DNA of 64,000 bases from Vermamoeba vermiformis (GCA_045837725.1 JBEWZL010000203.1:1-64000), one strand, 5' to 3'. Counted from the stretch's first letter, positions 6,433 to 59,087 are shown. Numbers and translations: made by a program. The notes: generated by a model from the sequence alone, not told the origin.

Positions 6433-6449
6433 AATTAATTTCAATACTG
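6433..6449 (+). repeat. Left target-site duplication (AATTAATTTCAATACTG)
   Basis: Identical 17-mer at 13100-13116, on the other side of the retrotransposon. Confidence 0.9.
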
Positions 6450-6510
6450 GGTGTTTCAGTCATGTGTTGGGCACCACAAATCAATTTATCTATATTTTAT
6501 TAAAACCGAA

Positions 6511-12500: not shown

Positions 12501-12726
12501 ACACCTGGAGAGAGTCATTACATTAAGGAAAGCGAAGAGAATTAATAATATCATTATTCAATCATTCAATCAAATATGGAATGAAAGGAACAAGATCATA
12601 GTCGAGAAAGGACTTACGCACGTAGAACAGAAGGCTAGAAAGCTCGAAGAACAATTCAACAATATTGAACAAGAGGAAGAAGAGCAAAGAAAGGCAATCG
12701 AGCAACTATATTTTAACGAATTTTAA
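6511..12726 (+). CDS. Retrotransposon polyprotein: ORF1-like coiled-coil region + APE endonuclease + reverse transcriptase + RNase H + C-terminal zinc finger (about 2071 aa from first ATG)
   Basis: APE: PDIIILTEH, RGGVAIL, GVYGP, IIGGDFN, SKLDYIL, ADHLPV. RT: KASGID, YRPITLL, QFGG, DISGAYD, GIPQGDPFS, WIDD, FLGY. RNase H: ATDGS, RAEAYG, ISDS, HIKAHTG, NEKADKAAK. ZnF: CPACGKEDEDQEHVMLRC, then IWNERN. Confidence 0.93.
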   Translation: MTSQMDLDQEENIITQLENLEITIKNKAIIIDDLEEQKIRDKPENFIVLKITDISAKNENKNDIAFSMVLMDTEQEGFKWETTLSSETAMKIRYFTDCLQTYAAKQKEEEEQRITNIPESIPITEAKLEGAHLTVKGVTADVMKKSSTAIREHLEKALKVKINNVQKPESKGNAEMDYVFINLNPDEADKIANREVAHMEIDYRADYGDRDVARTVLLRTSGNHGFNKEDRDQIRNIIIKGIEEQTDQLISKSKVLVFPGKSNNQFWGVVNTTRKFFAQQIKNLEIKENGLEIEFYMTGKRIPKSYTEITISNVPRKITATQDENSVIQEIQNKTGIKPAYLDFDKSKGLIYIGTFTAEESDKIKRQLKQINDTNVKIQNTIDYNESMERQPDQIQLKSKETNTGMEIVNEFRTTTNLLIETVRRSIEQTDRLLAIQEKQIAIQAERDKSNDERFNQLMTLMTSQIERDQKRSEIEQEKERAREEMQKKLDDKINKVMETLSINPDQRTTKKRTREDDEGEDKQSKQPRVASSINKPSLYPRTTIIMTLFLLISQVQASNTNALEEKHITISAVNVMCLSSLIIINKLVRWIQDYEPDIIILTEHKIRRIHGTVTPINIPGYEWRSISAKSKRIRRRPNSARGGVAILTKPSIITIDPKNNDENEITEGRYCELSVVTQENERIRIIGVYGPADQREQPQFLNQITKIVKENENRIIIGGDFNNLISKKDATHNTHHKIKHMQLFRDKCQLEEHDENDNIKERATFMRKNYASKLDYILTNFRDGVVTSKTINVEIADHLPVALTISPKLITGNVEAQQFKERIKIDRRDKKKLHEYQRMISNWCYQNEETIEEFKTDKKDKGEHLYEQFNEIITTTAKRIYAQTKRSIKKATRTFPYDSKGGRLIGRISWINRAIKRMKFIQATNPINITNEDRKIFEPNELTEDIAELKPGDINHADIDRYLKELINKKNRTNKKLNKEIKAFREQRTKEWQDLIKNEGHANSSKIRSILNRAQNVQLRAITTNDGELITNPDNVKESIADYFEQQRQNIQPRNVTKPWLHDDIWKETRAQIAQYNSNQKLEADITVDELTNHIRERPNGKASGIDEVTYEMIKILPKEGIELYTNILNAIVNEKLSPKNFKSAEIVLIYKRDNQYSPKNYRPITLLEIAYKVITGVIAERISIMNQQIQFITPCQFGGIANTSCGEATQVIINIIKKAHRQQDELHIGCHDISGAYDNEPNEAVIDTFRSLGLPNKMIETIIFMQDKLINKVRTVYGHSRDIIFNKGIPQGDPFSVLKFVLFMDMFTRWMISKQRGYEVNNIHIPGLQWIDDSNFIARSNEELQTMTNELVQFLDAYQMKLSPHKSSYMAFNNNNDDIINVDQTEIKPSNTMRFLGYHIDKYVNWSEHERIMKYAMKNSMKRITKHNIPAETKLNLINSDTISIYRFSADLVPYSKSFNKEIIRAIKNKADPTNAYRIATSMYFLDKKLFAHHIEDLEAINKGRMVSNLMKCLNNKNIFVRLTTENTITDMNKDYKTQVLNGRNIRNDNKSKKYPPNIVNAIKTLHELDIKIFINKAPTKEIEDLTIEEYFNEIKLTKEQEKTLETELKGRKNEKMKKICSLFKRNGREHAPIYDLITCRPINYHYETTFKLPIDRQRAILPIFNQVYETAHARLERYTERMQHNVPLNNLIWATDGSKRGEIATTAVVSDKATYKHRVPEQQSIARAEAYGIQICLEKNLINNRNINIISDSKTTLQIIEKYRRTRKEKIINKNDNASIIRRIVEIMDQVNVSLRHIKAHTGNQDELSKLNEKADKAAKETNEREQRAPINWKHLPMYIPLIKNELFEGNISKIIRIDSQNQRMKKEATIASIRTATSEQVWKIPSFFSTGRNQDRLNFAIQCNAKALPTMSLLSTRCAELYDSRLCPACGKEDEDQEHVMLRCEKYHEIREELKQQIKDEMNIPNDRYLWLAPTQENRFFPEQLACRGAIPIHLERVITLRKAKRINNIIIQSFNQIWNERNKIIVEKGLTHVEQKARKLEEQFNNIEQEEEEQRKAIEQLYFNEF

Positions 12727-18776: not shown

Positions 18777-20347
18777 ATGGAAGAACTAGCTTTGAGTGGC
18801 TTAGATCACTTTATGTTGCCTGTTTACACGCGAATGCTATTTTTTTATGAAAAGACTCTTAATGTAGAGGTAATATTTATTTTAAACGACATTTTCTGAT
18901 CGATTATAAATTTTTAAGCGCGATCCGAAATATTTTTGCAATGCGACGAACTCAAATGCAATTTTATATTGTTGGCCCGATTAAATTACAAATACATATA
19001 AATAACTGTTTATTATTCGCAATATTCATTACTTAAGATTAAAAATCAAAGTGACATCCAAGCTTCATCGAATAGCTACTAACGAATTATAAGGCACTTG
19101 AAAGAGCTCTTGTTACAGTAATGCAACGCGATTACAAACCTTGGTTGGGTGTGGTGGCTCATGTGGATGAGACCAAGCCAGTCTTACGCTACGATCCAAA
19201 TGCAACTCCCTCGATCACCAAAGTGACTCTTGATTGTTCTTTTGCCGACGTGAAGGGCCATGATGGAAGTTACCGATTTATTTCTGATGATTTAGTGGTC
19301 CCCAAAGAACTTTTTGTCACCGCGCCTGAGGCCCAGATCTTGCATACCGTCTTGTTCACCTTTGCCAAGAGCGACGGCTGCGTGTTGGCAGTAAGTCTGC
19401 ACCACCGAGCAGGAGATGGATCAGCACAGTTCACATTTGTGAAGGCTTGGGGCGACGAAGTGCGGGGCCTCAAACACGCTCGTGCTACAATTGTCCATGA
19501 GCGAAGTTGCATACCAAAGATACTTGATCAGCCCATTGAAACACCTCCTTCATATCGCCATATTGTCAATCGACCGCCATTGCCGGCTTCTTATGGTCCC
19601 GCCAATTCACTGCTGGTTAGATTCCCTACACAAGCCTTGCGTGAGCTTAAAAGTCATCTCTCCGCAACCATTACTGCCCCTCAATATGTCAGCACAAACG
19701 ACGTGCTCCTTGCTTTGATATTCCGAGCTGTTGTTAGAGCCAAAGGACTTCCTACGGATGCTCCCATATTCACTAAGGTACGCGTACTATTTTGCTTCCA
19801 TCATCAGATCCGATTTTAAGTTTTGTTTTTGCAGTTCAATGCCGATGGTAGATTTCGCAATGCTGGCATCCCATTGACATATACAGGCAATGCAGTATTC
19901 TTCATGATGATTGAACCGAAGAATGTTGGCGAGGTTCTCAACTCCTCTTTAGCCGAAGTTGCGTTATGGTACAGATCAGCAATCAATTCACTTAACAACA
20001 CGTCTATGGCCAATATTGTTAGTTTCTTGGACCAGTTTTCAATGCCGTACTTGCAAGAATCATTCTTTTACATGCCTCCGTACCTGCATATCTCGAACTG
20101 GGACACGCTTGGTGACTTGACCGAATACGATTTTGGAACTGGCCCTGCAGCAGCAATTCGCTTGCCTCCTCCCGGCCTCGATTCAATATTTTACATTCTG
20201 CCGTCTATTGGCGCAGTAGAGTGCGTTGTTGGACTGGCACCTGACGTACTCGCGAAATTCAGGGAAGATAAGGAGTTGTTACAAGCTGGCGCCGAGATGC
20301 TTGGCGAGTTTTCTGCACTCAATGCGGACTCGAACAAATACGAATAA
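18777..20347 (+). CDS. BAHD-type CoA-dependent acyltransferase (transferase family)
   Basis: N-terminal LSGLD, catalytic HxxxDG (HHRAGDG), STND, YTGNA, DFGTG (DFGWG variant); three exons. Confidence 0.85.
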
Positions 20348-21132
20348 AAGCCATCGCATTGCGATAATACTCGAGTCTGTTAAGGGCCAGTTTTCTTCGT
20401 TTTAACAGTCCATTGACAACAACTAATGTTACCAAACGTAAATAACCAACACGGTGCTTCAAATTAGTAAGTAGCGCTTCTATGTCGATATCGCTTGTTC
20501 ATATACTGAGCAAGCTAAGACGATCTTAGCACGAGCTCAAAAATTTATGTTAATCACTAAATATCACAATTAATTGATTATAAAATTAGCTACCTATTAG
20601 GGGTATTTATTAGACGTTAAAAATAAATTATTAGCCTTAGGGCTAATTTTAATTAAAAATTTTCTAATTGATTTTGATCGATCAAAAAATCTTCTTGTAA
20701 ATTATCCAATAAGGATTACGATGTACGATGTTTATTATTAAATATTCCTAACCAACTAGATGTTCAGGGACAACAAGCAGATCTTAACGTAATCACGCTT
20801 CAGAATTGTTCGTAGTTGCTTTAACTAGCGTTTAAGAAATCTATTCTTAAACGAGCAGTCGAAAGATTATTCCACCGGTTCAAAAATAGAGCTTCTTAAT
20901 CGCAAATTATTGCAGCCAACGGACGGCTCTGGATGCAGGTACTTTTATCTCACACTATTATGATGTTCGTGATGCTAATACTGAACAATAGGTGCGATAT
21001 GGATTCGGCATCCGTTCCATAGCGAGGAGATTTCATAAGCTAATTTTAGCGCGTGTCATGTACGTCTAATTAATTTATTCGCCCCAATTCTCTTTCGATA
21101 ATTTTTAAAATTCAACGCGAAAGAACGCACGC

Positions 21133-23699
21133 ATGAAGCTCTTATTGATTATATTTATTTGCATAGGCGTTCAATTTGCATATGCTAGCCAAGTCACCTT
21201 TGGCATCAGCATCTCTACGCAAGCTCCATCCGAGTTTTTGAACTCTAACGGACGCAGTGTGCTTGCTGGTCTTCAATTGTTCGTGCACTCAGCTAATCAA
21301 TGGAACATCACTATCAATAAGAACGATAGCCTATCATTTGCTATCAAGTACATGGAAGACTATGGCAACGCCACGATCGTCAAACAAAACTATCAAGCGT
21401 TTGTCAGTGACCCCGAAATCAGCTACTTGATCGGTCCTGTGTCATCACCCCTCAGTTCTGCAGCTAAAAGCATCACTGAGCCTGCTGGACGGTTGCTTCT
21501 TGGAACCAAAGTCGGATCTGCTAGTTTCTACACCAACGCTGAATATAGCTTCTCTGTGACTAGTTCGCCACCACGATACGCTACAACAACGTTTCCAGAG
21601 TTCCGCATCAATAATATTCGCAGGATTGTGCTAGTAATAGAACAAACGCCATTTCAAATTGATATCGGCAAAGGATTCGTATCGAATGCGCAAGATTTCA
21701 GTATAACAGTGTTAAGCCAATACAACGTTATTACCGACACGCTGAATGGCGTAGACGAGCATTTTTTGGACAACATAACCGCGACTGTCGAGTTAATCCG
21801 CTCATCGGAATCTGACTTTGCGGCCGATGGTGGAATTGATGCCGTAGTGATTGCGTCGTTCACTAACGTCGGAAGATATTTCTTGGAAGCAGCCAGGAAG
21901 ATAAACTACATGCCCAAAGCGATCTACGTCAGTTCTTTCTACTTGCCGGATTTTCAGAAACTTGATCCAAGTTTGACAGCTTTTGTGTGCGGATGTGACG
22001 TGATGGCGCCTGGAATAGAGTTCAGAGGCGACTACTTTGGCACTTATGAAGACTTTCAGAACGCGTTTAATAGCTTCAGACCGGATTTGGCTCCAGCGGA
22101 TGCCAACCATGCTATTGGCGCCGTTAGTGGCTTATTACTTATGCGGTCTATAATGTCCGCTGATTCATTGGACACGAGTGAAGTCACTAGAGCCCTTAGC
22201 AGAATCAACGAAGAAACTTTTTTTGGTCCTTATCAATTCGGATCGGATCATTCTCAACTCAGATTTATTCCAATTCTGCAATTTGCGCCGGAAACCGAAG
22301 ATTTTAGAAGAGCTGTTATTTCAAATTCTTCGCAATTCGCGAATAATATCAACGTCGTTGGTCCCAGCAGAGTCAAGTTACAAAATCTGATCTATCCAGT
22401 GCCAACGTGGGACGAGCGAATATTTGACCCTAAATACGTTACAGCCGAATACGCGATCATGGGAATCACCGCAGGTATAATAATTATTCCGAGAGACTAA
22501 AATTAGAGTTACTTAAATTTCTAAAATTGCGAAATCGACGTATCTGCCAAAAGAAATGAAATGTCTGCAATGCTTACTTTATTACTTAATCGATATATAT
22601 TATAGTGGCACAGCTGTTATCAGTAGTCTGTCTGATGCTCACGGTCAAATACCGCAAAAATCGGGTCGTAAAAGCTTCGTCCCCGCTGTTCCTGATCTAC
22701 ATCTTAGCCGGCACGCTATTGTCTTACAGCACTAACTACACATGGACTGCAACACAGTTCAACATTGCCAACTGTGCTTTGACACCAATAGTCCTCGGCT
22801 TGGGCTTCGTTATCACATTCGGCGCACTCTTTGCAAAATCGTGGCGCATTGTCACGTTGTTCAGACAAGCTGAAAAACTCACTGTAGTCACGATCAGCAA
22901 CAAGAAATTGACCGTGATCCTTGCGGTGCTGGTCGGAGTTCAAGTCATCTTTTCAGTGCTCTTGGCCGTGTTTTCAGATCTCGCGGTGGTCGTGACGGAT
23001 CCGTACCGACCAGTCTTATGGGAACAACGCTGCTTCCTTAATAATGGATTCAACATCTTGCTGTACATCAACATTGCATTCGCGGGTCTGATCATCTTGA
23101 CCGGCCTGGTCCTCGCAGTGATGATGCGCAAGATCAAGAATCAGCTCTTCAATGAAGCGAGGCACTTGGCGTTTATCATCTACGCGATAGCTGTGTTTGT
23201 TGCCGTAGTTACTGCGCTCAGTTTTGACGTCTTAACAGGTTCGTACAAACAGATCGGGATCCACATCCATCGTTATTTTCAATCGATATGATCATGTATC
23301 TAATCAATTGTATTAATAGGGTTGAATCAATATATATTCAGAAGTGTGGCTATTCTCGTAATCAATTTAACGACGGTGATCACTCTGTTCGGAACGAAAC
23401 TGAACTACATCCGCACCGGAAAGTTGCCAACCAACGAAGAACCAACAGCACTGCATCGTTATGTACCTTCTCCGCGTGATCGAGAAGATGCAGATCTGCG
23501 CACAACTGTGCAAAAATTGAATGCACGCATTGCCGAACTGACAGCGCTGTTAGACACGACCAAAAAGGACTACGAATCACTTAAAAACAGCGTTGTGGCT
23601 GATAATAACGCGCGACAAAGCCAAGTGACGTTATTGCAGGGCAAAGAAGACGACAGTTCTGAACACAATTCATCTTCTTCGTCTAGCTCCGAGTCCTAA
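21133..23699 (+). CDS. Class C (GABA-B/Grl-like) GPCR
   Basis: Signal peptide; type-1 periplasmic-binding (Venus flytrap-like) ectodomain; 7TM region with VVKASSPLF, FGALFAKSWRI, LFNEAR; coiled-coil and Ser-rich tail; two introns. Confidence 0.88.
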
Positions 23700-28784: not shown

Positions 28785-31700
28785 CTACACGTCCAAAGTT
28801 TCCTTCTTCTTGTCTTTGTCTTTGCCACCTTGTTCTTTCTTCTTGGGAAGTTCGCTGTACATGTCGAGAATGGCATTCAACAAATGAATCATTTGCGCGG
28901 ACTTTTCTTCGTCTTCAATTTGAGCAAATCGTTCACGAATCTTGTTTTCATTTCGCGTAATGTGCTCGTGCAAGTACGCAAGGGAGTTGAGTCGAACTTC
29001 GCTTGGCAGTTCAAGATCCATTTTCACTTTCGCTTGTGCTCGTTCTTGCGGATTCTATTTTAAAAATATCAGCATATATTATTACACCACACTATATTAT
29101 ATATTATGAGATTTGCAAGAATAATTCGACATGAAAATAAAATTTCTTGGACTTACGAGAATGGATCTGTAGAACTCGGCGACCTTGGGCTTATTTCTGT
29201 TAATAAAGTCACTCAAGTTCTCCATATACGCCTCTTTGTTATTAGTAGCCATGTTCGCAAGTGTTTGAAGCACTTTTGCAATCAAAACAAGTTGTCGTTG
29301 AGCTACTTGATTTGGCGCTTCAAGTAGAAGACCGTAATAGTGCGGTGCTGTCAGTGCTGGACCGATGTAACTGCAAATGAAGTTAATACGATGATGATGA
29401 TTGCCTAATATGGTAAAAACAAAACTTACCGCAAGAACAACAGACCACCAATAGCTTTGAACACGGCGTCTTCATTGCCAAATTTGTCCATGATTGTGTT
29501 CGACATGCGCGAGAAAATTTGACGGAATTCACTGAACGAAGGAGTTAGCAAAAATAAAAAAAATGTAGAAAAGAATTGACTTACTTAGGTACTTTGTCAT
29601 CACCGTTTTTGATCACCGTGAAGATCTTTTGACACGCAAGAGCGAGTTGATAAACGTTCTGATCGGTGTCAACACTCGCGTCCTTGATCTTGTTCGGATC
29701 CACTTCCATTTCAATCTGAAGCAACGACGCTCCTTTATCATCGCCGTCCATTTTGTCTGCTTCTTTCATCGCCTTTGCGGCCACTGTGTTCAGTTCATTC
29801 ACGACTATGAAATTGAAGAGCAGTTAGTCGAAGCACAGGTTTGACATTTTTGACACTTTGACATGTTGACACGTGTCACTTGTAAGTGGTATTGAAGTGT
29901 CACTTACCTCTCGCCAATGTGAACCACAAGTACTTGGTTCCTACGAGCTTCGAGTAGAACTTGAACATCTTGCTACTAATACTATTTTGACGGAATATGG
30001 TGTTCTCGCTCGAGGCTTTTCGTGCTTCTTCTGACACGAAGTATTGCAACAATTCGGCACCTTGTTGCTTGCTTTGTGCCAAGAAGATCAAGTACTTCGC
30101 GACCTAACGATAAAAATTGAAAGATTAGACTCGAATGCGGTGAATTAGTATTGTACTTACCGCGTCTTGTTCAGTTGGAGCAGTCACGTCTGCAACTGCA
30201 TCAACAAATGTTCTGTCGCGACTCATCAAAACATCTTCAAGTTTTCTACGAAAGAGGTGATAATTAGTAAATGAACGATAATTTGAAACTACTGTGCTAC
30301 TCACTGATAGTCGTCCTTGGCACTAATCTTGTACTTGAGTGTCAAGTCAGTTTGATAAGCCACGGTCAGATAGTCAGGCTCGACGACTTCGACAATCAAT
30401 CCACCACGACGTTTTCTCCATCGCATGAACAGAATCAGCAGCACTGTGCCTGCAATCAGCGCTGATCCACCGACGACAACACCTGCCACGAGGCCTGCAA
30501 CATCAATGGCTGCACTGCAGTTCGATCCCCAAAGCTCGGCACTACCGCATGTTGCTTGAGTTGTGCACGAGTTAGATTCTGAACACCAGCCACAAAGATT
30601 CTTTGCGACACATTGCGAGCACGAGGTGAGCTGAGAGCAGTCTGTTTGGCGCCTTTTGTTAGCATTATAGAATTAAGAATAATGAGCTAAAATGACTTAC
30701 CAACGAAAGTGAACGGCACTGGTCCGGCAATCGAAGTGCTCTCATATAACAATCTGAAGTTCAAACTGCTCTCAAAGATCACTTTTGGCGGTGTGCACGT
30801 CAGCGAGGATGAGTTGACGAGTGTTGCTGACACTTTTGGAACTCCTTCAAACTCGCAAAAGAACGAGTCTGAAACTGATCTCTTCTTTGTACTAGTTTCG
30901 TTTGACGCCACTGAAGCAAGAGCAACGAATGGATCAATGGACGGATTGACACCGATTGTCAACGTGTCATTGCCAAACAATGTCGCGTAGTTTGGAGCGA
31001 CTGTCAGATCTGCCACAAAAAAAAACGATTAACTTTTTGGGCTAGTCTTTTGAAATCTACTTACCAATGCATTGTCGCAAGAAGAACTCCTGGGAACCAG
31101 TGCATCGAGTTTGAGGACCGCACGACTTGGTTGTCAAGCACCAGCCACAGTACGGCGAGTCAGACATGCATTGTGCCTGACATCCCGATCCTGTCGAGAA
31201 CGAGTTGCAACCTGAGATAATTCGTTAGTTAGCATTATTAAATAAGACATGTATGACTGCTTACTGAAGAAAGTGAAGTTGAGAGGCGAGTTCGGTGCTA
31301 TATCATCACCGTTCAATAACACACGTAAAAGAACGTCACCAATCAAACGACGGCGAGACGGTGTGACACAAATCAAGTTTGAAGAATCCGAGCTGACTGT
31401 TGTGCTATCAGCTGGTTGATCATCAAACATACACGTGTAAGTGAAGTCAGGGCGGGTGAAGAAGGGACCACCGTTAATGACTATTGTTTCGCCTCCCTCG
31501 AAATATCCGTAGTTTGGTGTGACGCTGTTCAGAGCTAAGAAAGATGTTAGTAGCCGCACCTTTGAAGCCTTTACGTGACTTACAAGGACATTGAATTTGT
31601 TGGAAGTCTGATGAATCGCACGTGAAAGCACAGTAGCGCGAGCACCATCTGCAACGTGTGTTCAGTGGAGCCAAACAGTCACTGCAGCCTGTTGTAATCG

Positions 31701-34700
31701 CCGCGCAATCTAACGAAGATAACATTAGCCAACAATAATAGAGGTCATTTGTAACTTACCGTAAAAAGTAAATGAGATTGAGTTCGTGTAGACAACGCCG
31801 TTGACCGTAATGTAGGCTTGTACGACCCCGACAGGTGCAACAGTTGTGACGCACGACACACTGCCATCTGTCCAGTTCGTCGCTGCGAGTGTACTATTGC
31901 CAAGCACGCAATTAATTTGACTCAAGCTGGCGACTTGTGAGAACGAGAACGAGCCAGTGAACACCACCACTTCATCACCGAGCGTTGATGCACTCGATGG
32001 CGTGGCACTCGTGATTGAAGGACACGTTGACGAGTTGCTCGAAGTAGCTTGTGCTGCGCATGTTGAGCTGCCTTCGTGGAAACATTGAAGGTTTGTGCCA
32101 CACCACGAACACGTTGGTCTTGCATCAGAAGCGCAGTCCGAGCACGAGGTCGCCGAGCAATCTTGAGAAAGAATTAGATTATCATAGCTTAATTTAGATG
32201 AAATCACTTACCATAAACGGCAATAGTCGAATCAGGTGTCAGACGCGAATAACTTCCACTGCCAATGTCAGCCCAAATACTCACCTAACACCGAGTTAAA
32301 ATGATATAATAATGAGATGTAGGTCCATACCCTGTGCTGGCCAACAGCAAGACCAGTCTGTGCGGGACAAGAGATGTACGTGTTGTTGGTGGGAGTAGCG
32401 TCAGTCAATTGAGCCGAAGTGACCGCTGTACCGACGTCCCATGCGCATTTTAAGGTTGGAAGAGTTTGTCCGTCGAACACGAATAAACCACTAATGTGAC
32501 TGCAAAAAAATAGAAAGAATCATAAGACCAAGAACTTTTCATGAATTATTTGACCTCTGACTTACATCGTTGTCGTAGCGAGATCACCAACGTAAATAGA
32601 GCTCGGGGAAATATCATTGATTGCTGATTGAAGGAGTTAGCAAATGCTACTCAGAGTGCATAAAACGTACCAGGACAACGGCCGTTGGTCGTGCAGGAGG
32701 CAGTAGCATTGGCAGCGTAAGTGCACAATCTCGTATTGAAACAGAACGTGCAGTCATCGCGCAGTGCAACGGCCGAGAAGGCGTCAGTGCACGTTGAACA
32801 ATCTTGACCGTACAAGTCACAATCTAAAAGTTCGAGTCAATTTCTCACTTTCAATATTAGCGGTATTATGACTTACCATAAATAATGAACCCAGAGGTCG
32901 AAGTGTAAAGTTTGCCATTAGCGTGAACTTCAATTGTAGTTTTGATCTCCGCTTGACCCGCACGAAGTGTGTCCCATTGAGAGCGAACGTCAGGCGTGAG
33001 ACAAGTGATCGATGTGCTGCTCACTCTTGTCGCTTGTGTCTCGAACTGACCATCGAACACACACGTGTAGTTAGCATTGGCAACGACTGTAGGCGAGATC
33101 GTCAATGTGATCAACTTGTCTGTGGAAAGAAATTAGTCATTAGTGTCGGTGACAATGGTCCCGAACTTACTTCCTCGAATGGATGCACCCAGCGAAGAAA
33201 GAGATGTCACAGCTGAAGAAAGGTGATTAGACCAATGATAACGAAGATGTGTAATATAGACTGAATTACCAGGGCAAGTTCTTGTCCACGAACTGGCGTC
33301 ACATCGTTGAGCAGATCCACAAGTCGAATTCGTCAAACACAAACCACACTCTGCCTCACTGAAGCACGAAGTACAATCTGGGCTTGCCGAGCATTCTGTG
33401 AATGTATTCAACGTTAGCAAAGCACCATCTTATCTTAATGTACGTACGATAGTAAGTGAATGACGCAGAATTTGTGGTCCACCAAGTATTTTTCCAACGA
33501 ATGCGGAGATTCTTTGAACCTGCTGCTGCTGCCGCAGGACTCGTGCATTGCAGCGATTGATACTGAAGATTATAGACGGTGGTGGTTGTTGATTCGTCCC
33601 ATACACAACGCAAATCAACGTCGCTGAGGAGATTTCCTGAAGAATCGGCGAATGTGCTGGTCACGTTGATGACTGTGTTGCCGTCAATCGAGCCACGTGA
33701 CGGCGAGATTTTTTGAATAACTGTAAGTACATAATGTTAGGGCTTGGGAGGTCTGAAAATGTATTTGCAAAGAGAGCTTACCAGGACAAATATAATTACG
33801 AATATCAACGTCCCAATCGTTCGCTGTGCAGTCCTTGGACAAGGAACAAACGCGAGAAGTAGAACAAAAGCCGCAGTAATTTTGATCCGTCTGGCACGTC
33901 AAGCAATCGTACAAGCCACAGCCTAAAATGACACGTGTCAAAATAATATATCAATGACATTAAATCAATATTTTCTTACTCGTAATCTGGTACTTGTAAA
34001 CTACGTCACCAGATCCAGACTTTGTGAACCAATACATGGCGTTGTTATCGAGATCGAAGTACGCGAAGAGCAGTGGCTTATTCACGAACATACCTGAATC
34101 ACATGGCAAAGTTAATATACGGAAAATATTTCAATTCGCTGCAAGGTATACTACGCGTATACTTTTTTACGTACTTGTTTGTCCAAACGACTGCCAATAA
34201 CTATTCAAGCGAATAATACTGCTCGAAGTATTTGTATCTTGCATTCCCCAGAAAACAACGTCGTTAATGGCATCTAAAAAATTCTTATCTTTAGTACTAT
34301 AGTTCCTTGATTATAAGCATCCGTTAATGTACGTACCATATCCAATGCCGTACATTGTTTTTCCATTTTGAAAGAAAATTTGACGACTTGCAATGTTGCT
34401 ATCAATCTGAAAAAAAAATTGTAGTAATTAGCCCAGTTATTATAATTACTAATAATAGCTGTACGTACTTCGTAACCGGTACCAGCATTATCTCCTGTAA
34501 TAAAAGTGCCTCTGCGAGGATTATTTTTCAACGATACAACCTGCGGAGAAAATTAGCTCGTGCGCGACAAAAAGACTGTTCGGAATTTCACTCTTACGTA
34601 AGCATTTCGCTCTGTTTTAATGACCGAAGATGTGCTAGCAATATATCGAGCCATAAAGCCAACGCTCCGACCAACTCCGTTTCTTTGGCCGCCAAACAAG

Positions 34701-50864: not shown

Positions 50865-53800
50865 TTATTTCTCAATGTACACAATGTCAGTGGCGGTGCG
50901 TCCAAATATCTCGGGACTGTACATTTCTTCAGCCTTGGCTGGCGGCACGACAAAAGTACCTATGGGACAATACATTAATAACCTATAATTCAAATAATAT
51001 AGAGATAGTAGTGTGAGTTACCTTCGCACGTGGCGCGGCACAAAAAGCGATAGACGTAGTGACCTTCCCACAACAACGATTTGAAGGCCTCAGCGCGCTC
51101 ATCACGCAAGTTCTGATGTTCGTACCACTGGTACTCGTGATAGACGCGCGTCGTGTAGGGATTGTAGTTGTTTTGCTCGTTGCGATTGATCACTTCTTCT
51201 TGAGTCTCGCCCAATTCTGTGCCTATATTTGGCAATTGCTGTTAGTGCCAAGGAATTTTTTCACGGTTTCGAAAAAAAATATCCCGCTAACACATTTCAA
51301 AAGATGTAATTACGAGCAACGAATTTAGCCGTATATGTGAAATTTCAATTTGGGGTTTGTATGAAATGGTTTCTTACCTTTGAGCGAAGAGTTAACAATC
51401 TCAAGGCCAGCAGGCAACTTGTCAACGAGAGCCACGTGATATCTGCGCGAGGTGGTGGTCATCGTGATAATGACACGCACCTTCTTGCCGAGCTTGAAGT
51501 GCCAGTTTCCGATCGCGTCTTTAGTCACGTGACTAGCGCTGTCAACACCTTCGTAAGTACGTGTCAACTTGAAGCCGTAACAAGCAGCCTTCAAACGCAA
51601 ATCTTCCGGAGCGTAGTTCATAGCCAAGCGGAAGTACAATCGACCAGGGCCTTCCTTCGTCAAGATCAGATCCGTGTCGCCGAGTTCGTGCAGCAATCTC
51701 ATCGGCACGTTAATGATGTTCGTGTCCGTCGTGCGGCCCTTGTAGCTCTGTTCGCCTGCAAAGATCTCGCCGAGCCAGACTTGCGTGTTGAAATTGGGTT
51801 CGTCCTTTTCGTAGATTGCGAAGTACTTGTCCAAAGCAACCAAAATGAAGCAGTTTTCTTGCGTGTTGTTCCAACGACCAGCCTTACGATGTGCCAAAAG
51901 ACCCTTGGCGATCTTGGGAATGATCGAGTTTTGTTGGTCCACGGTCAAGAATGCCTCAAGCAAGATACCATCAGTTCTGCGGTCAGAGTGCAACATGACG
52001 TATTTGCCTTCTTGATCGCCAAATTTGGTAATAAAGTTGGCTGTCTCGGCGGTTTCGTTCGATCTGTTCTTCAAGAACTGCGAAAAAAAAAAATAATGAG
52101 TTTCTATTGATTTTCTGAGCTACTAATAGTTACGTACCATCAAGATCGTGTCAATGACTGAACGAGTGTCTTTGCTGGAGTCAATGCTCATGGCCATCAT
52201 CAACCAGCCCAAGGCCTCCATGGTGACACCGTCATTACCGGCAGTCTTGTAAAGGCTCTTAGCAAGGCTGACAACGTCCTCACCGAGCTTGTGGCGCACA
52301 TAGTACGAATACGCCAACAGCGAGCGCTTGCTGTACTGACTCATCCACCAGTAGTACTGGTTCAAGAAGTTTTCCAAAGTCTTCAAGAACTGATGAGCAC
52401 GTGACAAAAGGTCCTTGTCAACAGTGACACCTACAAATTAAAATGATTAGAAAATCGTGAAATTTCGTTATAACCTTGTGCTCAATATTCATACCTTTTT
52501 CGATGGACTTGGCCAAACAATTGGTCACGTGGACGGACAAGAAAGGATCCGGCAAACGCCAGTAATAGACGGGACGAGTCCAGAAATAGAATCCTCCCTT
52601 CGCATAACTCTTGAAGTCAGTGTTCTCTTGACGCTTCACCAACTCTTTCAGTTGTTCTCTGAGTTGCAACAAGAGCTCCAAGTTGGAAGGCAAGTCGGGC
52701 ACATTGAACGATTGCAAGACGTCCTTCAAGGCCACAATACCGAGAATTCTTGAAGCCAGTTGTTCGGAGCAGTCAAACTGGTACTTGTACAAGTAGAGCA
52801 CGGCGTCGGTGAGCGATTGCAAGATAGTTGAACTCGTTGAAACCTCGAGACCACCGAACTCTTTGTAGGTGCCCTTGGGTGCCTTGATCGGTTGGAACAC
52901 AACGGTCTTGTCGTTGATGTCACCATAAGCTATAACATCACATTAGCACTCAGAACATTCGCATTATCAGATCAACACGTACTAGCAAAGGCTTCAGTAG
53001 TGGCAGGAGTCCAGACAGGCAATGAGATTTCGGCGGCGTCAGAGAAATCATCGCTCGAAGCGACAATCTGGAAGCGAGCAGTGCCTGCAAATTTAGTCTC
53101 GACAGGAATGAACACCGCTGCTCTTCTCAACGCAGGGATCTTCACACTGCAAAATAAATACATTAGCCGTGAAAAATTGGCGAGATATTTTCACTTACGT
53201 GTAACCACCAGTGAAGTCAGCACCAAATCTGGCATTGGTGCAACGAGCAGCCACACGAACGGACAAATCAGCGTCAGTCTGATTTTGCAAAACAACGCTG
53301 CATTGAGCCTTGTCGCCGAAGTTCAAGAAGCGAGGGAACGAAGGACGAACCATAAAAGGCAATTGAGCAATGACCGTGGACTCGCCAATACCGAACTGGC
53401 GCTCAGTGGCAGCAACAGCCCAAATGCGGTATCTTGTCAATGAATCCGGCAACTTGAAATCTACTGCCAATTTGCCATGTTTGTCGGTCACGCACGAAGG
53501 TGAGAAGTTAGCAATTGCACTGAAATTGCTGCGGACTGTGATGGCGCTGTCATCTGCGCCGCCCTCTTCTTCGGGTGCCATTGGCGCGGCCATGTCTTCA
53601 TCGTCCATCATCATGTCCTTCGACATCTCTCTCTCCCTCTCTTCTTTTTTATCCCTCATAGGGGCTGCCTTGCTTCTAGAGGAGAAGGCTGATTCTTTCT
53701 TCATTTTAGATTTTCTCATCTTCATCTCTTCCTTTTCTTCTTCTACTTCCTCTTTTTCAGCTTGTGGGGCATTTTCTTTCATCTTAAGCAAGTCTTCGGC

Positions 53801-56800
53801 GCTACAACAACGGTTATTAACCTTTCCATTACCTAGTTTCAAAACTTTAGCGTACCTAATTAACAACACGGCGCTGCGCAAGTAGGTGAAGCCAACACCA
53901 ACAGAGCGGTGCTTGTAGAAGAAAGCCAGTGGATCGTCGATGCTGTAACCAGTCAAAGCCAACACACTTTCATCAACGACAACAACACAAACTATGCAAT
54001 TAAGTTAGTAAGAAATTACGCAGACAGGTCTTGACTGTACCTTCGCTGTTTGCAACGGGCTTTGAGCTGGCGTCTTTGACTTCCACTTCAACACGGGCAT
54101 CAGCTCCAGGCTTGTACGAAGGTCGCGATGGCTTGACGTCAACATGCAACACATCAGACTTGTTTCTGATGGAGATGTTTGCAAGACCTTTCGCGAACGC
54201 AGGACGAGGTGGGGAAGTCAAATCAAGAGCGCCGGAGTTGAGGGCACGAGGGGACGCTCCCATCAAATCCACTTGAATCTGCGCGTTAGGCTGCCAGTCC
54301 TCCTTGATAGGGAACTTCAACACGACTGAGTCATCATCGATTCTGAAGCGCTGAGTGTGCACAATGCCCTCGCACAAGATGCTCAATAAACCTTCCGCAG
54401 GCTTGATTGGAGATTGAACCAACAGTTCTCCCTCCGTTTCGCCGTCGAATGGCGAGTAAGCTTGCTTGTCAGGGATAATGGTAGCGACCTCTTGAGAGAC
54501 TTTCACAATCTTGGGAGCAGTGGCTGCTTTACCTCCTGACACGTTGAATGTAACGATCGTCTCGTTCTTACGCTCTATAAAAAGGATTAGCAAATACTCC
54601 TTAACAATAGTACTAATCCATCTTTGTACGTACTGTTCTCGTCAACGGTGATAAACTCGAAAGTGTATTTGCCACCACGTGCAGGGAAGTATTCGTACAC
54701 GACAGGCTCGGCCTTGGATACCAATTTAACCAGCTTGGTCTCAGTCTTGTTGACTTCTTTAGTCAAACCATTGGCGTCTATCCAAAGTATAGCATTAGCA
54801 AGCGAGATTAAAAATAGCAAAATAAGAATTTTAGCGACTTACCCTTTTCATCAGCGACCCAGTTGCAAGTCTGTTTGATCCAGAAGTTGGTTCCTACAAT
54901 TGCCTTGCCGTCAATGTCGGTGACAATAATCTCCATCGGGAACAGGTCCTTGGGCTTGCCGTAAGATCTCTTCATGTTGACACCAATGTAACGAGACGAA
55001 GGGTGCAACAAAAAGCTTAATCAAATATTAAAATATTGCCGAGTAGTGAAGTGTCATGCGAGCAACGTACCTTGTAGCAGTTTCGCGGGTTTGATAGTTC
55101 AAATCAGTGATGGAAGCAACAGCCTTCAAGCTCTTTGGATGCGGCAGAGTACCCTTGTAGCACACCTTGATCTCGTGCTCACCATTGCCATCAGTCTTTG
55201 CTGACCAGGCGCCCGTGGGCACCCCAGGCCCCCCAGAGGGGGCCGGCCCGGACCGGCGGGGGGCCGACCAGGTCGTCTGAACTCTTCAACCTTGAAGGTG
55301 TGCGTGTAATACTCGTTTGTCGAGACCACTCTAAAGGCCACTTGAGCCTCGCCGAGGTTCATGTTGTCTATATTCAAGTTCGTTAATATTCTGTGCCGAA
55401 TAATAAAAATGATTAATTGTACGTACCCGGCAAACTGAGCTTAAGATCAAATGCACCATACTCGTTGAACTTGAGCGTGCCCTTGGAAATTTCAGCGCCA
55501 CGTGGGTCCTTGAACGAGTACTCGATGTCGCCAGAAGCAAACTTGGGAACAACGCGCATCTTCTCGTCGCGACCGACACGGCGTGCAAAGCCCTTAATGA
55601 AGACCTCTTCCTTGGGTCTGTAGAGCTTTCGGTCGTCAAATACAAACCAATTGAACGTGTCAAAGCTGTTACGAGTGTAATCAATGGGCGTGAAAACTAC
55701 GTCATTGTCGAGCGAGCACATGACAACTCCCTTGGGTGCAGATCCAAACTTTTCAAACAACTTGATGCCGTCATCGTTGGTTGTACCTAAATGGAAAGTT
55801 AGCCTCCGATACCACCGTTAAAGTCAATGTAACACTTACCAGAGCAGCTGTTAGGAGCAAGGATCTTGGCCTTAGGCACGGGCTTGCCATCGACGAGTTG
55901 AGAGGCCCAAACAAGCATGTCGCCATTGTGCGTGGAATACAAAGTATCTACGCACATACGAGTGCATTGGACCCACGAGAACAACTTAATATGATAATCC
56001 TCGTATTTGTCATAGTAGTTCTTGTGGAACACTCTCCAAGCAGACTCAGTGGGCTCAACTTTGACCACGAGTTGACCAAGATTCTCTTTCGGGTGTTGCA
56101 AAAACTTTTGAAGGTCGATCAAGATCTGCTTGGGAACGCAAGGCTCCACACCAGTCTTAATGACTTCGTTGTGCACGACTTTGCCAAACCGAGAGAGCTT
56201 TTCGCTTTTCGAACGATTGTTAAACGCGGCGGCGACCTGGAAGTACTGAGAAGGCTCCACTTGATATACTTTGACCTTAAGTTCAGTGTACCCAACTACG
56301 ATTGGAGTGTAAGTGGGATGAACTGAGGGGTCAAGCACAGTCAAATGAGATGGACCAGCTGAAAATACGCGTTAGTTATGATTCATAGCTGTGCTCTTTA
56401 TGAATGCTTACTTAATGAATCGTAGCCAGGACCCACGGACAGTCTATAAGTGTCGTTCTCGGTAAGTTTTTGGCCGTAAACGTCCTTCAATTCTCGACCA
56501 ACAACGACAGTGTAGTCCGTATTGGGCTCACTATCATTCTCAATAATCAACGAAGTGACGTTCAGTTTCAAGCCGAAGCTTCCTCCCGGCATGATTACTG
56601 TTTGTGAAGTATTCGAAGAATTATTGTCCAACTTGAAAGTAGCGTTCTTCAATGGAGGCTTGACGGTGATCAACTTTTCATTGAACGTGCGGTAGTCAAT
56701 GGGATTGGTGAAATAGATTCTCCAAGTAGAGCGAGGGTGGAAGACAGGGTGATAAGGTTGAATAACACTAACAAAAATATTAATTATTAAGGTCGGCTAC

Positions 56801-59087
56801 GAGGAGTTAGTTAACGTACCCAAACTTGGGATAAGTGGTGAACGAGAAACTTTGACCAGTCGCAATAAGAGGTCCTTCAGCAGATGGGACATTGTTCAAC
56901 GCACAAGTGTAAGATGAGTTTGGCGACAAGTCCTTACTAAACTCAAATCCGAAGTACGTGTTGCGATTGATCTCGTTAGTGTCAATACCATATTCTTCCA
57001 ATCGTTTAACTAACTTTTCTTGCTTCAATAGCTTAGGAGTAGCACCGCCAATACTAATACATAAAATGAGCTAACAGCCATACATAGTAATTGGGTTAAA
57101 CGACTTACCTGAGGCACTTGAACACCTTTTCTACGTCAATTCGTTGATCGTAGCACACAGCTATAGTAGGGTTCAAGCAGTCCACGGTCTGTGTGTATAA
57201 AGATCTGCCGCTTTCCCAATGGTTCTTGGAAAAGTTAGAAAGGTAAATGACCTTGTTGATGATTGGCGTATTGGTTGTGAATTGAAATTGGAAGTCTGAG
57301 GCCAAAACACCGTTCAGCTGTGACTTGACGCCCTTAGCCACCTTCACTTCGTAATTGATAGCAAATGGGAATCGTCCTTCAGCTTCAAATTGCACAGTTT
57401 CGGTGCCCTTCCAAACGAATCGGCCAGGAGGTCTCGGGGTAATGGTAACGATATCAACTGTAAGATCATTAGATTAACTGTAATGAGTATTTAATATCGA
57501 TCTACCCCGTACCTTCTTTCAGTTCTTCGAGGCCAGTAAGAGGTACCATCGGCTGATTGAAAGTGATTGACATTGTGGTCACGGGGTGGTTGAGACTTCC
57601 CTGAGGCGTGTAACGAAGAGCCTTCAACTCTCCAGCCTCGGTCTTGGCCAACTTCTTGGCGGCCTCAATGTCAATAATCTCCTCCGGCATAACTGTATGA
57701 AATCAGTTTCTAGTCGATTTTTCACGGTCCAAAACTTACCCTCAGGTGGTGGCGGGAACGGCTGGTTAATTCTTTCACCAGTCTTAGGAGCCTTCAACGA
57801 CGTTTCTATAGTGGCATATTAATAAGGTGCTATACAATTTGTGTTTCATTTTCACGTACCTCTCATCGCGAAGTTCTTCTCATCGCCCTCTTCGCTCTTA
57901 ATCGGTTCAGCTCTGCTCAACAACTTTTCAACAGCCTCTTTCGCTAATGATTGAGCGGGCTCGCTGGGCTTCTCTTCGGGCTCTTCTTCATCCGCGTTGT
58001 CTTGTTCAGCAGCGGCTTGAGCTTCCAATTTCTTGGCTTCTCGTGCATCCACTTCAGCGAATCCAACAACGAAAGGAACCGATTCAGTTTCTAAATAGTA
58101 ATTAATATTAATAATGCATCGTAGGGTAGTTTGCACTTGTATTTACGTACCAGGCAAGTCTTCAGGCTCTTCTTCGCTGACTTCATCGTCATCTCTGCGG
58201 GGAGATTTAATGTTATCATCAGTAACGACAACAAAGGCTGATGTTTTCAAGTTTGGATCTATAATACACGTTAGTATGAATAAGAGAACGGACTGAGATT
58301 ATTTAGCGGCAGTAAGGAACTCGATCGAGCTTTCATAATTACCTTGAGTTCCAAAACGCGAAGAAACCTTCAAATTATCGTGCTTATTCTTGTCCTTATC
58401 CTCAACAGTATTGGTGTTATTATCGGAAGGAGCTTAGCCGTTTTGAGGTCTCCGTATTGGATCTTGAGCTGCAGTTGTCCGTTAACCGAATCTTTCTTAT
58501 TAGGACGAGCTGAAAGAGGGAACCAGCTGTCGATGATTTCAGTGCTTTGTAACAACTCATTGTTGAACTTGATCGTTACTTGGCCCTTTAACACTCGTTA
58601 GAATTAATCATGAAAATTGGATGTGGTAGGCACTTACCATAAATTTATCGGCGAGAATCTTTTGCTTATGCCAGACACTAGCTTGAATACCGACAAATTT
58701 GCTTTGGCCGACATCACTGAAAACGGTTATCAATTAAAATGTTCACCAAAATAAATTAATTTTCATTTGGACTTACAAAGTGATAGTTTCATCCCATTGA
58801 GGGTTGCCCGCCTTCTTTATAACCTCTACAATTATAGAAAAATTACTGGTTAATAATCTAGGCACCTCAATACCGCAACGGTCGGATTTTGAAAAACTAC
58901 TTACTGGTCAAACGAGGCGTTCCAATGGCTTTACCCGCCTCATCCAACAGCGTCAATACTACATATGCATCGGACTTGGCCTTAACAAGGTCCTTTCCAG
59001 ATACAACTGCGTAAACCCATTAGCCAACCGCAAATCCAGATTTAACATTTATTTACCTGAAACACGTAGTTGGCTTGCCTTCTCCAT
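50865..59087 (-). CDS. C2-domain + bacterial-type alpha-2-macroglobulin (thioester protein), no signal peptide
   Basis: C2: VVSGKDL, NPQWDETITF, DKFMGQV, WFPLSAR, GQLQLKIQY. Ig-like ITFNQPMV. MG2 FDDRKLYRPKEEVFIKG, KVEEFRRP. A2M VRSNF...LPDSLTRYRIWAVA, PRFLNFGD. Thioester region YQFDCSEQ. WNNTQEN, LVDKLPAGLE, PPAKAEEMYSPEIFGR. Confidence 0.88.

Follow-up and report, generated by a model that had tools for sequence, protein, structure and literature searches.

The closest relatives of known structure for the gene product reported here are the type I bacterial alpha-2-macroglobulins (A2M; PDB 4ziq, 5a42, 4rtd and 4u48). The Escherichia coli protein YfhM (ECAM) and Salmonella A2M (Sa-A2M) are lipoproteins according to their PDB titles. 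According to PMC5764988, bait cleavage in Sa-A2M leads to covalent capture of the protease, and the type I gene often adjoins pbpC. A second precedent comes from an amoebozoan. The Dictyostelium COG2373-like proteins DdiCPRas2 and EAL60755.1 have been ascribed to horizontal transfer from prokaryotes (Elias and Novotny 2008, PMC2430557), and that paper describes bacterial-type A2M-like proteins, one of them fused to a cytosolic signalling domain. A search of open-access main texts, which does not prove absence, turned up no account of C2 fused to A2M or of bacterial-type A2Ms in bdelloids, and this Dictyostelium work (PMC2430557) was the only precedent.

The 64,000 nucleotides of Vermamoeba vermiformis DNA analysed here (GCA_045837725.1 JBEWZL010000203.1:1-64000; the window) contain a minus-strand gene running from an ATG at 59087 to a TAA at 50865–50867. 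Similar to YfhM and Sa-A2M, its product combines an MG array, a bait-region domain, a thioester domain with CxEQ and a bMG10 domain. Unlike them, it has ~340 extra N-terminal profile positions occupied by Big_5 domains, a C2 domain and 26 introns, and it lacks the N-terminal signal peptide with lipobox that is a trait of type I bacterial A2M. A family profile built from 30 members (1991 positions) finds its best solved matches in YfhM/ECAM (4ziq, E 5e-103) and Salmonella A2M (4u48, 2e-101); single window exons gave no match to solved structures, and the kinship is seen with the family profile. Animal TEP1, CD109, A2M and C3 share the thioester domain and MG homology (family profile E 2e-23 to 1e-5), but they are secreted or GPI-anchored and far more distant, and the window protein carries the bacterial-specific bMG10 and Big_5 domains. 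By comparison with the description in PMC2430557, the Dictyostelium fusion partner is an internally inserted, circularly permuted Ras GTPase, whereas that of the window is an N-terminal C2. The window gene has no such insert, and none of its 23 exon ORFs gave a Ras-family Pfam match.

Gene model and encoded domains

The spliced model comprises 27 exons and 26 introns of 47–155 nt, all GT..AG, in line with the more than 20 introns over 8.2 kb proposed by a first-pass annotation. All exons lie on the minus strand, and apart from the two defects discussed below the 6.6 kb of coding sequence are free of stops and frameshifts. Exon 1 (59057–59087) holds the ATG at 59087–59085, with an in-frame TAA 9 nt upstream, and the same start is found in two related sequences, the 473-aa ORF P0272 and the genomic contig L001. 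The C2 domain is encoded by exons 2 (58905–59006; L001 counterpart 82% identical, 33 of 33 codons), 3 (58777–58825) and 4 (58638–58716), and its last strands lie in exon 5 (58343–58585), which also contains the start of the linker. Exons 3, 4 and 8 are supported by the model and by codon comparison with L001, and exon 5 by intact counterparts in P0271, P0272 and L001. Because the pieces are too short, the four C2 exon pieces taken singly matched no Pfam family. The domain is revealed through P0272, whose residues 6–110 match Pfam C2 (PF00168, E 2.2e-17) and which is 84% identical to spliced residues 1–135 of the window. By sequence, the N-terminal module is a classical C2 domain, and most calcium-binding aspartates of loops 1 and 3 seem to be replaced when compared by eye with the consensus.

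In the encoded protein the C2 domain (residues ~6–130) is followed by an acidic linker (~131–215), which is probably disordered, and then by the bacterial-type A2M part. Exon 6 (58151–58258) encodes linker with a motif common to a C2-SPRY protein of Endostelium, and exon 7 (57860–58090) encodes acidic linker and the beginning of the family-profile match at model residue 216. Beyond exon 8 (57740–57805), the first Ig-like domain begins in exon 9 (57513–57692), as placed by homologue alignment. Exon 10 (57109–57457) is Big_5-like; exon 12 (56412–56767) matches Big_5 (E 3e-6) and exon 14 (55427–55786) MG2 (E 1e-9) in Pfam scans of single-exon ORFs; and exons 11 (56820–57053), 13 (55840–56358) and 15 (55269–55367), the last ending in EEFRRP, have counterparts in the relative. 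Exons 16 (55071–55200), 17 (54843–55015) and 18 (54634–54777) rest on the spliced model, as do exons 20 (53856–53991) and 22 (52983–53146). Between these, exon 19 (54041–54574) encodes the bait-region domain (A2M_BRD, E 1.7e-8), and exon 21 (53199–53801) the bait-like segment followed by the A2M domain (E 3e-17). The thioester domain begins in exon 23 (52495–52929), continues through exon 24 (52138–52430; spliced model) and ends in exon 25 (51378–52077), where Pfam and homologue matches also place the start of bMG10. The latter extends through exon 26 (51022–51222) and ends in exon 27 (50865–50959; spliced model) before the TAA; its Pfam matches on exon ORFs have E-values of 2.2e-13, 1.5e-6 and 2.2e-4. 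The MG array, bait-region domain and A2M domain identify a member of the A2M/TEP/complement superfamily, with one MG domain mostly missing in the window copy.

Several features named by the first-pass annotation recur in this model. The acidic linker and Ig-like domains follow the C2 domain as described, and the CSEQ codons occupy exactly the proposed positions (52771–52760); CxEQ stands at the same place in 108 of 120 homologues. The low-complexity bait-like region, put at about 53560–53790, corresponds to a charged, E/K/M-rich segment of ~90 aa at approximately 53801–53532. The segment is situated where a bait region is expected. It spans 124 aa from anchor to anchor, compared with a median of 102 aa among 77 other homologues.

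Two defects in the window copy

The same annotation does not mention two defects of the window copy. First, the reading frame breaks in exon 5 at about 58431–58440. Here the window lacks 1 nt relative to P0271, a long allele that reads in frame, and has 5 nt more than a short in-frame allele found in contigs of runs X1 and X2; the window ORF as given therefore ends after 158 aa and comprises only C2. Both runs derive from one sample and bear the same species label, and the sole covering contig of each leaves out 5 nt at 58435, which restores the frame. Second, a patch of 85% GC, unique in the window, occupies 55208–55268. It stands directly after EEFRRP, where 84 family-profile positions (764–847) of an MG domain are absent. 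The full bacterial-style A2M series that had been proposed is thus represented in its domain types and incomplete by these 84 positions. The profile otherwise matches the model end to end, at positions 14–763 (residues 216–1000) and 848–1991 (residues 1002–2201), for a total of 1929.6 bits. Genomic contig L002, from the same relative as L001, has the missing segment, with at least 88 further residues after EEFRRP. The frame is recovered if 55268–55201 is taken to be a GT..AG intron. Contigs assembled from DNA under the same species label part from the window at 55269 and rejoin it at 55207; should nothing lie between these two flanks in the contigs, both joined forms would read into a stop.

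Local errors of assembly, or lesions confined to one allele, are the most likely source of these defects, which would then be foreign to the gene in its normal state. That the copy is a genuine null allele or a young pseudogene, in which both lesions are real while intact alleles persist in the population, seems improbable to us, though the idea keeps some weight. Both lesions are present in the sequence as given, and RNA reads of the same species label are almost absent from the gene (0 in run X12 and 3 in run X14). The runs also differ from the window at ~150 other sites over 8.7 kb, so several haplotypes exist. Against a null allele, exon 5 is in frame in every other source (the X1 and X2 contigs and P0271), the GC patch is unlike the rest of the window and the contigs depart exactly at its edges, and the remaining coding sequence is free of stops and shifts, with a dN/dS of at most ~0.1 against a relative.

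Descent, conservation and the C2 fusion

The A2M part is collinear from end to end with Acidobacteriota-type proteins of ~2000 aa, which their sources name 'YfaS' or 'DUF6049'. These proteins, for example P0006, P0052 and P0073, are 51–58% identical to the window over exon 25, with collinearity extending over P0006 residues 33–1983; unlike the window gene, they are bacterial, intron-free and devoid of C2. To our knowledge, no biochemical function is known for this bacterial family. The pbpC neighbour of type I A2M has no application to the eukaryotic locus of the window and is also absent near the 2000-aa family, in which none of the 48 nearest ORFs at 33 bacterial loci encodes a penicillin-binding protein. 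In trees made by quick or FastTree methods, which gave compositional warnings, the A2M part of the window groups within a clade of 14 rows (FastTree support 100) and within one of 17 rows (SH-aLRT 99), each nested among bacterial rows. Judged from these comparisons, the A2M part has its origin in the Acidobacteriota-type COG2373 family of ~2000 aa, in agreement with the first-pass annotation, which called the gene horizontally acquired.

The acquisition is not special to this organism, since the 17-row clade includes Naegleria and bdelloid rotifers and the window nests inside the Acidobacteriota-type proteins only as part of that clade. Its partners there, P0060 of Naegleria gruberi and proteins of Adineta steineri and Rotaria (P0027, P0047, P0080, P0093, P0118), show 46–49% identity with the window across the C-terminal 570 aa. 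They share the lack of an N-terminal hydrophobic segment and differ in their bait segments, which are Cys-rich in the rotifers, and in that none has C2. CxEQ is kept in all 16 clade members that cover the site. No other full-length member of the clade carries a C2 domain, which within the clade is confined to the window's lineage, and the C2 module would have been added there. The idea that C2 replaced a lipid anchor therefore stands only as a functional analogy, the other full-length members having neither anchor nor C2.

That C2 and A2M belong to one gene is supported by exon 5, a single exon that runs from the last C2 strands into the linker, and by the same C2-to-A2M exon chain in two other lineages, represented by the spliced ORF P0272 and a genomic contig. 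P0272 is collinear with exons 1–10 (350 of 469 aligned positions identical). It lacks the in-frame intron stretches of P0121, with residues otherwise identical, and therefore looks transcript-derived. P0272 could, however, derive from gene prediction instead. A third lineage is represented by the genomic contigs L001 and L002, in which all 14 exons tested (2–15) have counterparts of all or nearly all their length. RNA runs X12 and X14, which bear the species label of the window's contigs, lend the joined chain no support. Codon comparison with a relative gave dN values of 0.11–0.14 for C2 (116 codons), linker (165) and A2M (689) at saturated dS, and hence a dN/dS of at most ~0.1 in each part. 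On this sequence evidence, the gene is real, conserved and under purifying selection. The 158-aa, C2-only ORF of the window as written would suit separate genes or transcripts for C2 and A2M, and bacterial contamination or a chimeric assembly could be imagined as well. Such explanations are extremely improbable and already contradicted: the domain boundary falls inside exon 5, the linker exons have no in-frame ATG until just before exon 8, the same chain recurs in P0272 and L001, and a locus with 26 introns lies among eukaryotic neighbours (a LINE element, a class C GPCR and a metaxin-like gene). Introns, neighbours and selective constraint likewise agree with the proposed domestication of the gene.

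The Endostelium zonatum transcript P0275 carries a C2 domain 44% identical to that of the window over 135 aa (E 3e-34), with the same start and the common linker motif, but it has a SPRY domain in place of A2M. The combined evidence makes it probable that the window holds a conserved gene for C2, linker and bacterial-type A2M, with no signal peptide or transmembrane segment, of Acidobacteriota-type descent, with C2 added in its own lineage and with defects that are local.

Cellular site and possible function

The first-pass annotation had the protein begin directly with C2, and no export signal was found. Within the first 70 aa, Kyte-Doolittle means of 12-residue stretches reach no more than 1.17, giving no signal peptide, and the top 19-residue mean in the whole protein is 1.43, giving no transmembrane-like stretch. 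The start is conserved as MEK/MDK. Some secreted proteins, such as perforin, also have C2 domains, so a cytosolic site is not proven by C2 alone. It is conceivable, though quite doubtful, that the protein acts outside the cytosol through unconventional secretion or a missed signal exon, working in an extracellular or lumenal space like animal TEPs or bacterial A2M while C2, as in perforin, binds target membranes. The A2M/TEP proteins characterised to date all function outside the cytosol (PMC5764988), a thioester may be easier to keep away from cytosolic thiols, and hydrophobic N-termini occur in 76 of the 79 bacterial ORFs that are more distantly related. Set against this, three lineages share a conserved N-terminus without hydrophobic character, as does the Endostelium transcript, whose ORF is complete by name; the start is preceded by in-frame stops, 9 and 21 nt upstream in the two genomic sequences; and only ~400 nt separate the gene from a divergent upstream ORF. 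Hydrophobic N-termini are also lacking from all five full-length proteins of the 17-row clade (P0028, P0060, P0160, P0240, P0267). Among the closest full-length bacterial matches, 12 of 13 lack one as annotated.

An intracellular protease trap is a plausible role on the basis of these sequence features. The C2 domain would keep the protein at the cytosolic side of a membrane, where a protease cutting the bait would release the buried thioester, and the freed thioester could then bond covalently to the protease or to a nearby surface. Trapping may not be the function at all. The protein could be a covalent surface tagger, like C3b or TEP1, or a scaffold, with the charged 'bait' a disordered loop, an alternative that we regard as unlikely. 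The segment at the bait position is hypervariable and low-complexity in all homologues, no protease partner or conserved neighbour is known, and the GTPase insert of the Dictyostelium relative hints at signalling roles (PMC2430557). On the other side, the closest solved relatives, YfhM and Salmonella A2M, are protease traps, the latter capturing covalently after bait cleavage (PMC5764988).

Returning to the protease-trap reading, we tentatively suggest, as a possibility rather than an expectation, that several protists and bdelloid rotifers possess a family of intracellular thioester proteins derived from bacteria. Where C2 has been added, as in the window's lineage, it might recruit the protein to cytosolic membrane faces, for example at damaged phagosomes or lysosomes or at pathogen vacuoles, for covalent trapping of escaping or injected proteases or for tagging of invaders. 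If true, this would amount to a complement-like, cell-autonomous form of defence with an origin separate from that of animal TEPs.

Every thioester protein examined to date (A2M, C3, TEPs and bacterial A2M) acts outside the cytosol. Here, thioester machinery without a secretion signal is under purifying selection and is spread over distant eukaryotes, and one lineage joins it to a predicted membrane-binding C2 domain. The gene offers a clean example of a bacterial defence protein gaining introns and a new domain in eukaryotes, and it provides a concrete case in which covalent capture of proteases, or covalent tagging, within cells can be tested.

Gene structure and the C2–A2M fusion

The minus-strand gene at 59087-50865 lies in eukaryotic DNA with no N in the window, and its final model comprises 27 exons and 26 introns. 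The model was built from stop-to-stop ORFs and reading of the DNA, and automatic exon models that overshot or chose wrong donors were hand-corrected against homologues. The ATG at 59087, the TAA at 50865-50867 and the intron count bear out the extent and the more than 20 introns proposed in a first-pass annotation, which read the gene as a C2 domain, an acidic linker and a bacterial-type alpha-2-macroglobulin (A2M). Introns range from 47 to 155 nt; their donors are of the GTAAGT or GTACGT type and their acceptors are AG. A bacterial homologue of 1983 aa, P0006, aligns over 57956-50871 from its residue 33 through to its C-terminal end, and the C-terminus of the gene agrees with six homologues right up to the end.

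Elsewhere in the window, an uninterrupted 2095-aa ORF at 6439-12726 (+) with Exo_endo_phos endonuclease, reverse transcriptase and RNase H domains has the appearance of an intact LINE-type retroelement. At 21109-23291 (+) lie exons of a class C GPCR with relatives of up to 75% identity, the Peripla_BP_6/ANF_receptor ligand-binding part preceding 7tm_3. Two adjacent same-frame ORFs at 19076-20347 (+), separated by one stop, match the two halves of the plant/fungal-type acyltransferase family (PF02458); the split may reflect an in-frame stop, a short intron or a pseudogene. A higher-GC stretch (45–46%) at 30000-34000 (-) contains ORFs with IPT/TIG domains.

The four C2 exon pieces, searched singly, are too short and match no Pfam family. 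PDB phmmer searches with C2 exon pieces return nothing for one and a single chance match (E 1.1) for the other, and an Atlas search with the C2 exons gives a weak lead to a C2 cluster (score 0.85, under the Atlas reliability line). With the last C2 exon as query, five proteins are found among 9 candidates. P0272 is a 473-aa ORF from a JGI record of 7862 nt. Its residues 6–110 match Pfam C2 (E 2.2e-17), it also matches Big_5 (E 1.3e-5), and it is collinear with window exons 1–10 (350 of 469 aligned positions identical; 84% identity to window residues 1–135); its structure predicted from the single sequence has a mean pLDDT of 37, too low to use. Genomic records seemingly from the same organism (P0121) carry the same residues plus in-frame intron stretches missing from P0272, which thus appears to be a spliced transcript that retains intron 10. 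Judged by eye against the classical C2 consensus, the calcium-binding aspartates of the window domain seem mostly replaced.

Two further lines of evidence bear on whether the two parts form one gene. First, two metagenome contigs of a third lineage, L001 and L002, contain the same exon chain, interrupted by introns at matching exon ends, and all 14 window exons tested (exons 2–15) are matched there along their full or nearly full length. Second, in L001, P0272 and a further relative, P0271, exon 5 runs in a single frame from the final C2 strands into the linker, which rules out separate C2 and A2M genes. The fusion is conserved under purifying selection: relative to L001/L002, dN is 0.11–0.14 with dS saturated (>1.5), and dN/dS is at most ~0.1 in the C2 (116 codons), the linker (165 codons) and A2M exons 9–15 (689 codons).

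The linker is acidic as the first-pass annotation described, with 42 acidic and 23 basic residues among the 170 at model residues 131–300. The family profile begins matching at residue 216, so part of this segment derives from the original N-terminus of the bacterial protein. The C2-plus-linker module is also present in Endostelium zonatum (Amoebozoa, Discosea), its only named relative. In the transcript from that organism (P0275), a SPRY domain takes the place of the A2M behind the shared N-terminal C2 and linker motif, which suggests that amoebozoan-like genomes reuse the C2 module as a unit.

A2M domains, thioester motif and N-terminus

Pfam searches with single-exon ORFs of the gene identify Big_5 (E 3e-6), MG2 (E 1e-9), A2M_BRD (E 1.7e-8), A2M (E 3e-17) and bMG10 (E 2.2e-13, 1.5e-6 and 2.2e-4). 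The CSEQ codons occupy 52771..52760 (-), exactly where they had been placed from initial inspection. Among the 120 listed homologues of exon 25, 108 carry CxEQ, five have no Cys at this position and the region is absent in seven. A low-complexity, bait-like segment at ~53801-53532 (-), enriched in E, K and M, separates the bait-region domain from the A2M domain. Here the anchor-to-anchor distance is 124 aa, versus a median of 102 (range 54–173) in 77 other homologues, and the segment at this position is hypervariable across all homologues compared. Rotifer-clade proteins (P0010, P0023, P0027, P0093, P0118 and others) have Cys-rich, Gly-rich segments at the bait position, versus the charged one of the window protein.

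PDB phmmer searches with exons 23 and 25 alone return no matches, and the solved-structure comparison needed a profile of 30 family members. The best matches of this profile are E. coli YfhM/ECAM (E 5e-103) and then Salmonella A2M (2e-101), followed by TEP1, CD109, human A2M and C3. Passages of PMC5764988 describe type I bacterial A2Ms as carrying CxEQ, with the gene often adjacent to pbpC, and the Salmonella protein, Sa-A2M, as capturing proteases covalently after bait cleavage. The ~2000-aa COG2373 family shares the thioester and bait layout of type I proteins but is ~350 aa longer. The two also differ in gene context: none of the 48 nearest ORFs at 33 bacterial loci of the COG2373 family encodes a penicillin-binding protein, and no conserved gene partner is found at these 33 loci.

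The absence of a signal peptide holds up on several counts. The highest 12-residue hydropathy value in the first 70 aa is 1.17, and no 19-residue stretch of the whole model exceeds 1.43 as a transmembrane candidate. The start MEKASQL is common to the window and P0272, L001 has MDKASQL, and MEK begins the transcript from Endostelium, which is designated by name as having a complete ORF. Upstream of the ATG, the frame is closed by a stop 9 nt away in the window and 21 nt away in L001, and a divergent plus-strand ORF begins ~400 nt upstream of the gene start.

It had further been suggested that the C2 replaced a lipid anchor. Of 79 more distant bacterial ORFs, 76 have a hydrophobic N-terminus (signal peptide, lipobox or anchor), yet among the 13 closest full-length bacterial matches 12 lack one as annotated (P0006, P0026, P0052, P0067, P0071-P0073, P0082, P0090 and P0098-P0100), reflecting either mis-called starts or a signal-less bacterial subgroup. 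Replacement is thus a fair functional analogy rather than a demonstrated event. These 12 proteins begin a few residues before a conserved GLxFxLSE motif.

Two defects in the window copy

Two defects were overlooked when the gene was described as carrying the full A2M series; the domain order stands, but the series is interrupted. The first is a frame break in exon 5, where the window ORF stops after 158 aa and encodes the C2 only. In two DNA runs (X1 and X2) of a single sample carrying the same species label, the only covering contig of each lacks 5 nt at 58435; the X1 contig has no other differences. Removing these 5 nt gives a single open frame of 2202 aa. P0271, at 96% identity to the window, is in frame with two extra residues, so the window holds the long allele minus one base.

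The second defect lies at 55208-55268 (61 nt, 85% GC, unique in the window), following the residues EEFRRP, where family-profile positions 764–847, an MG segment, are missing. A GT..AG span at 55268..55201 restores the frame and is treated as an intron in the model. The patch is flanked by a 7-nt direct repeat and may have arisen as an assembly artefact or as filler DNA at a deletion. In L002, the coding sequence continues for at least 88 residues past the EEFRRP position. The X1 and X2 contigs diverge from the window sequence at 55269 or 55283 and match it again from 55207 or 55194, each form having about half depth; by our reading, both forms would run into a stop if joined directly, with no sequence between. 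We therefore think that real sequence is present at this site and that a local fault in the assembly produced the patch; a real lesion is less likely. Errors are likewise the more likely explanation of both defects than biology. With about half of each run read, two RNA runs with the same species label yield no reads (X12) and three reads (X14).

Origin and predicted role

A search with exon 25 finds 958 proteins (E <=0.001) among 2105 candidates, the best at 67% identity; named matches are mostly Acidobacteriota (Pyrinomonadaceae, Blastocatellia), along with bdelloid rotifers and Naegleria gruberi. A FastTree phylogeny of the window and 110 of 120 listed matches covering the C-terminal 572 aa groups Naegleria and ten rotifer-clade rows with the window, P0001 and P0003 in one clade (support 100), and 97 other rows fall outside it. 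In a quick IQ-TREE analysis of 55 rows, flagged like the first tree with compositional warnings, this clade grows to 17 rows (SH-aLRT 99) with three more signal-less proteins and is nested among Acidobacteriota-type rows. CxEQ is retained in all 16 clade members covering the motif site, and the only named eukaryotes are the Naegleria and rotifer rows.

None of the eight clade-related proteins scanned (P0001, P0010, P0028, P0060, P0126, P0160, P0240, P0267) contains a C2. Among 150 matches listed for exon 10 from 1.84 billion representatives, no ~2000-aa protein has its match beyond residue 231, and later matches occur only in multi-stretch proteins of other lengths. Together, these results identify the C2 as an addition of the window's lineage. 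The proposal of horizontal acquisition followed by fusion is supported by the nesting among bacterial A2Ms and the retained fusion chain, but such acquisition is not unique to this organism. Passages of PMC2430557 report COG2373-like proteins in Dictyostelium and ascribe them to horizontal transfer; in one of them a Ras-like GTPase is inserted. Beyond this precedent, the main texts of the literature searched describe no C2–A2M fusion or bdelloid bacterial-type A2M.

Apart from the two defects, the first-pass annotation was largely right, and the gene is real and conserved. The analysis shows its domain layout, CSEQ motif, bait-position segment and lack of a signal peptide, along with the conserved fusion and purifying selection; a role as a protease trap or covalent tagger is predicted and plausible. 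The C2 would tether the protein to the cytosolic face of a membrane, where a protease would cut the bait; the putative buried thioester would then be exposed and may capture the protease or a nearby surface.
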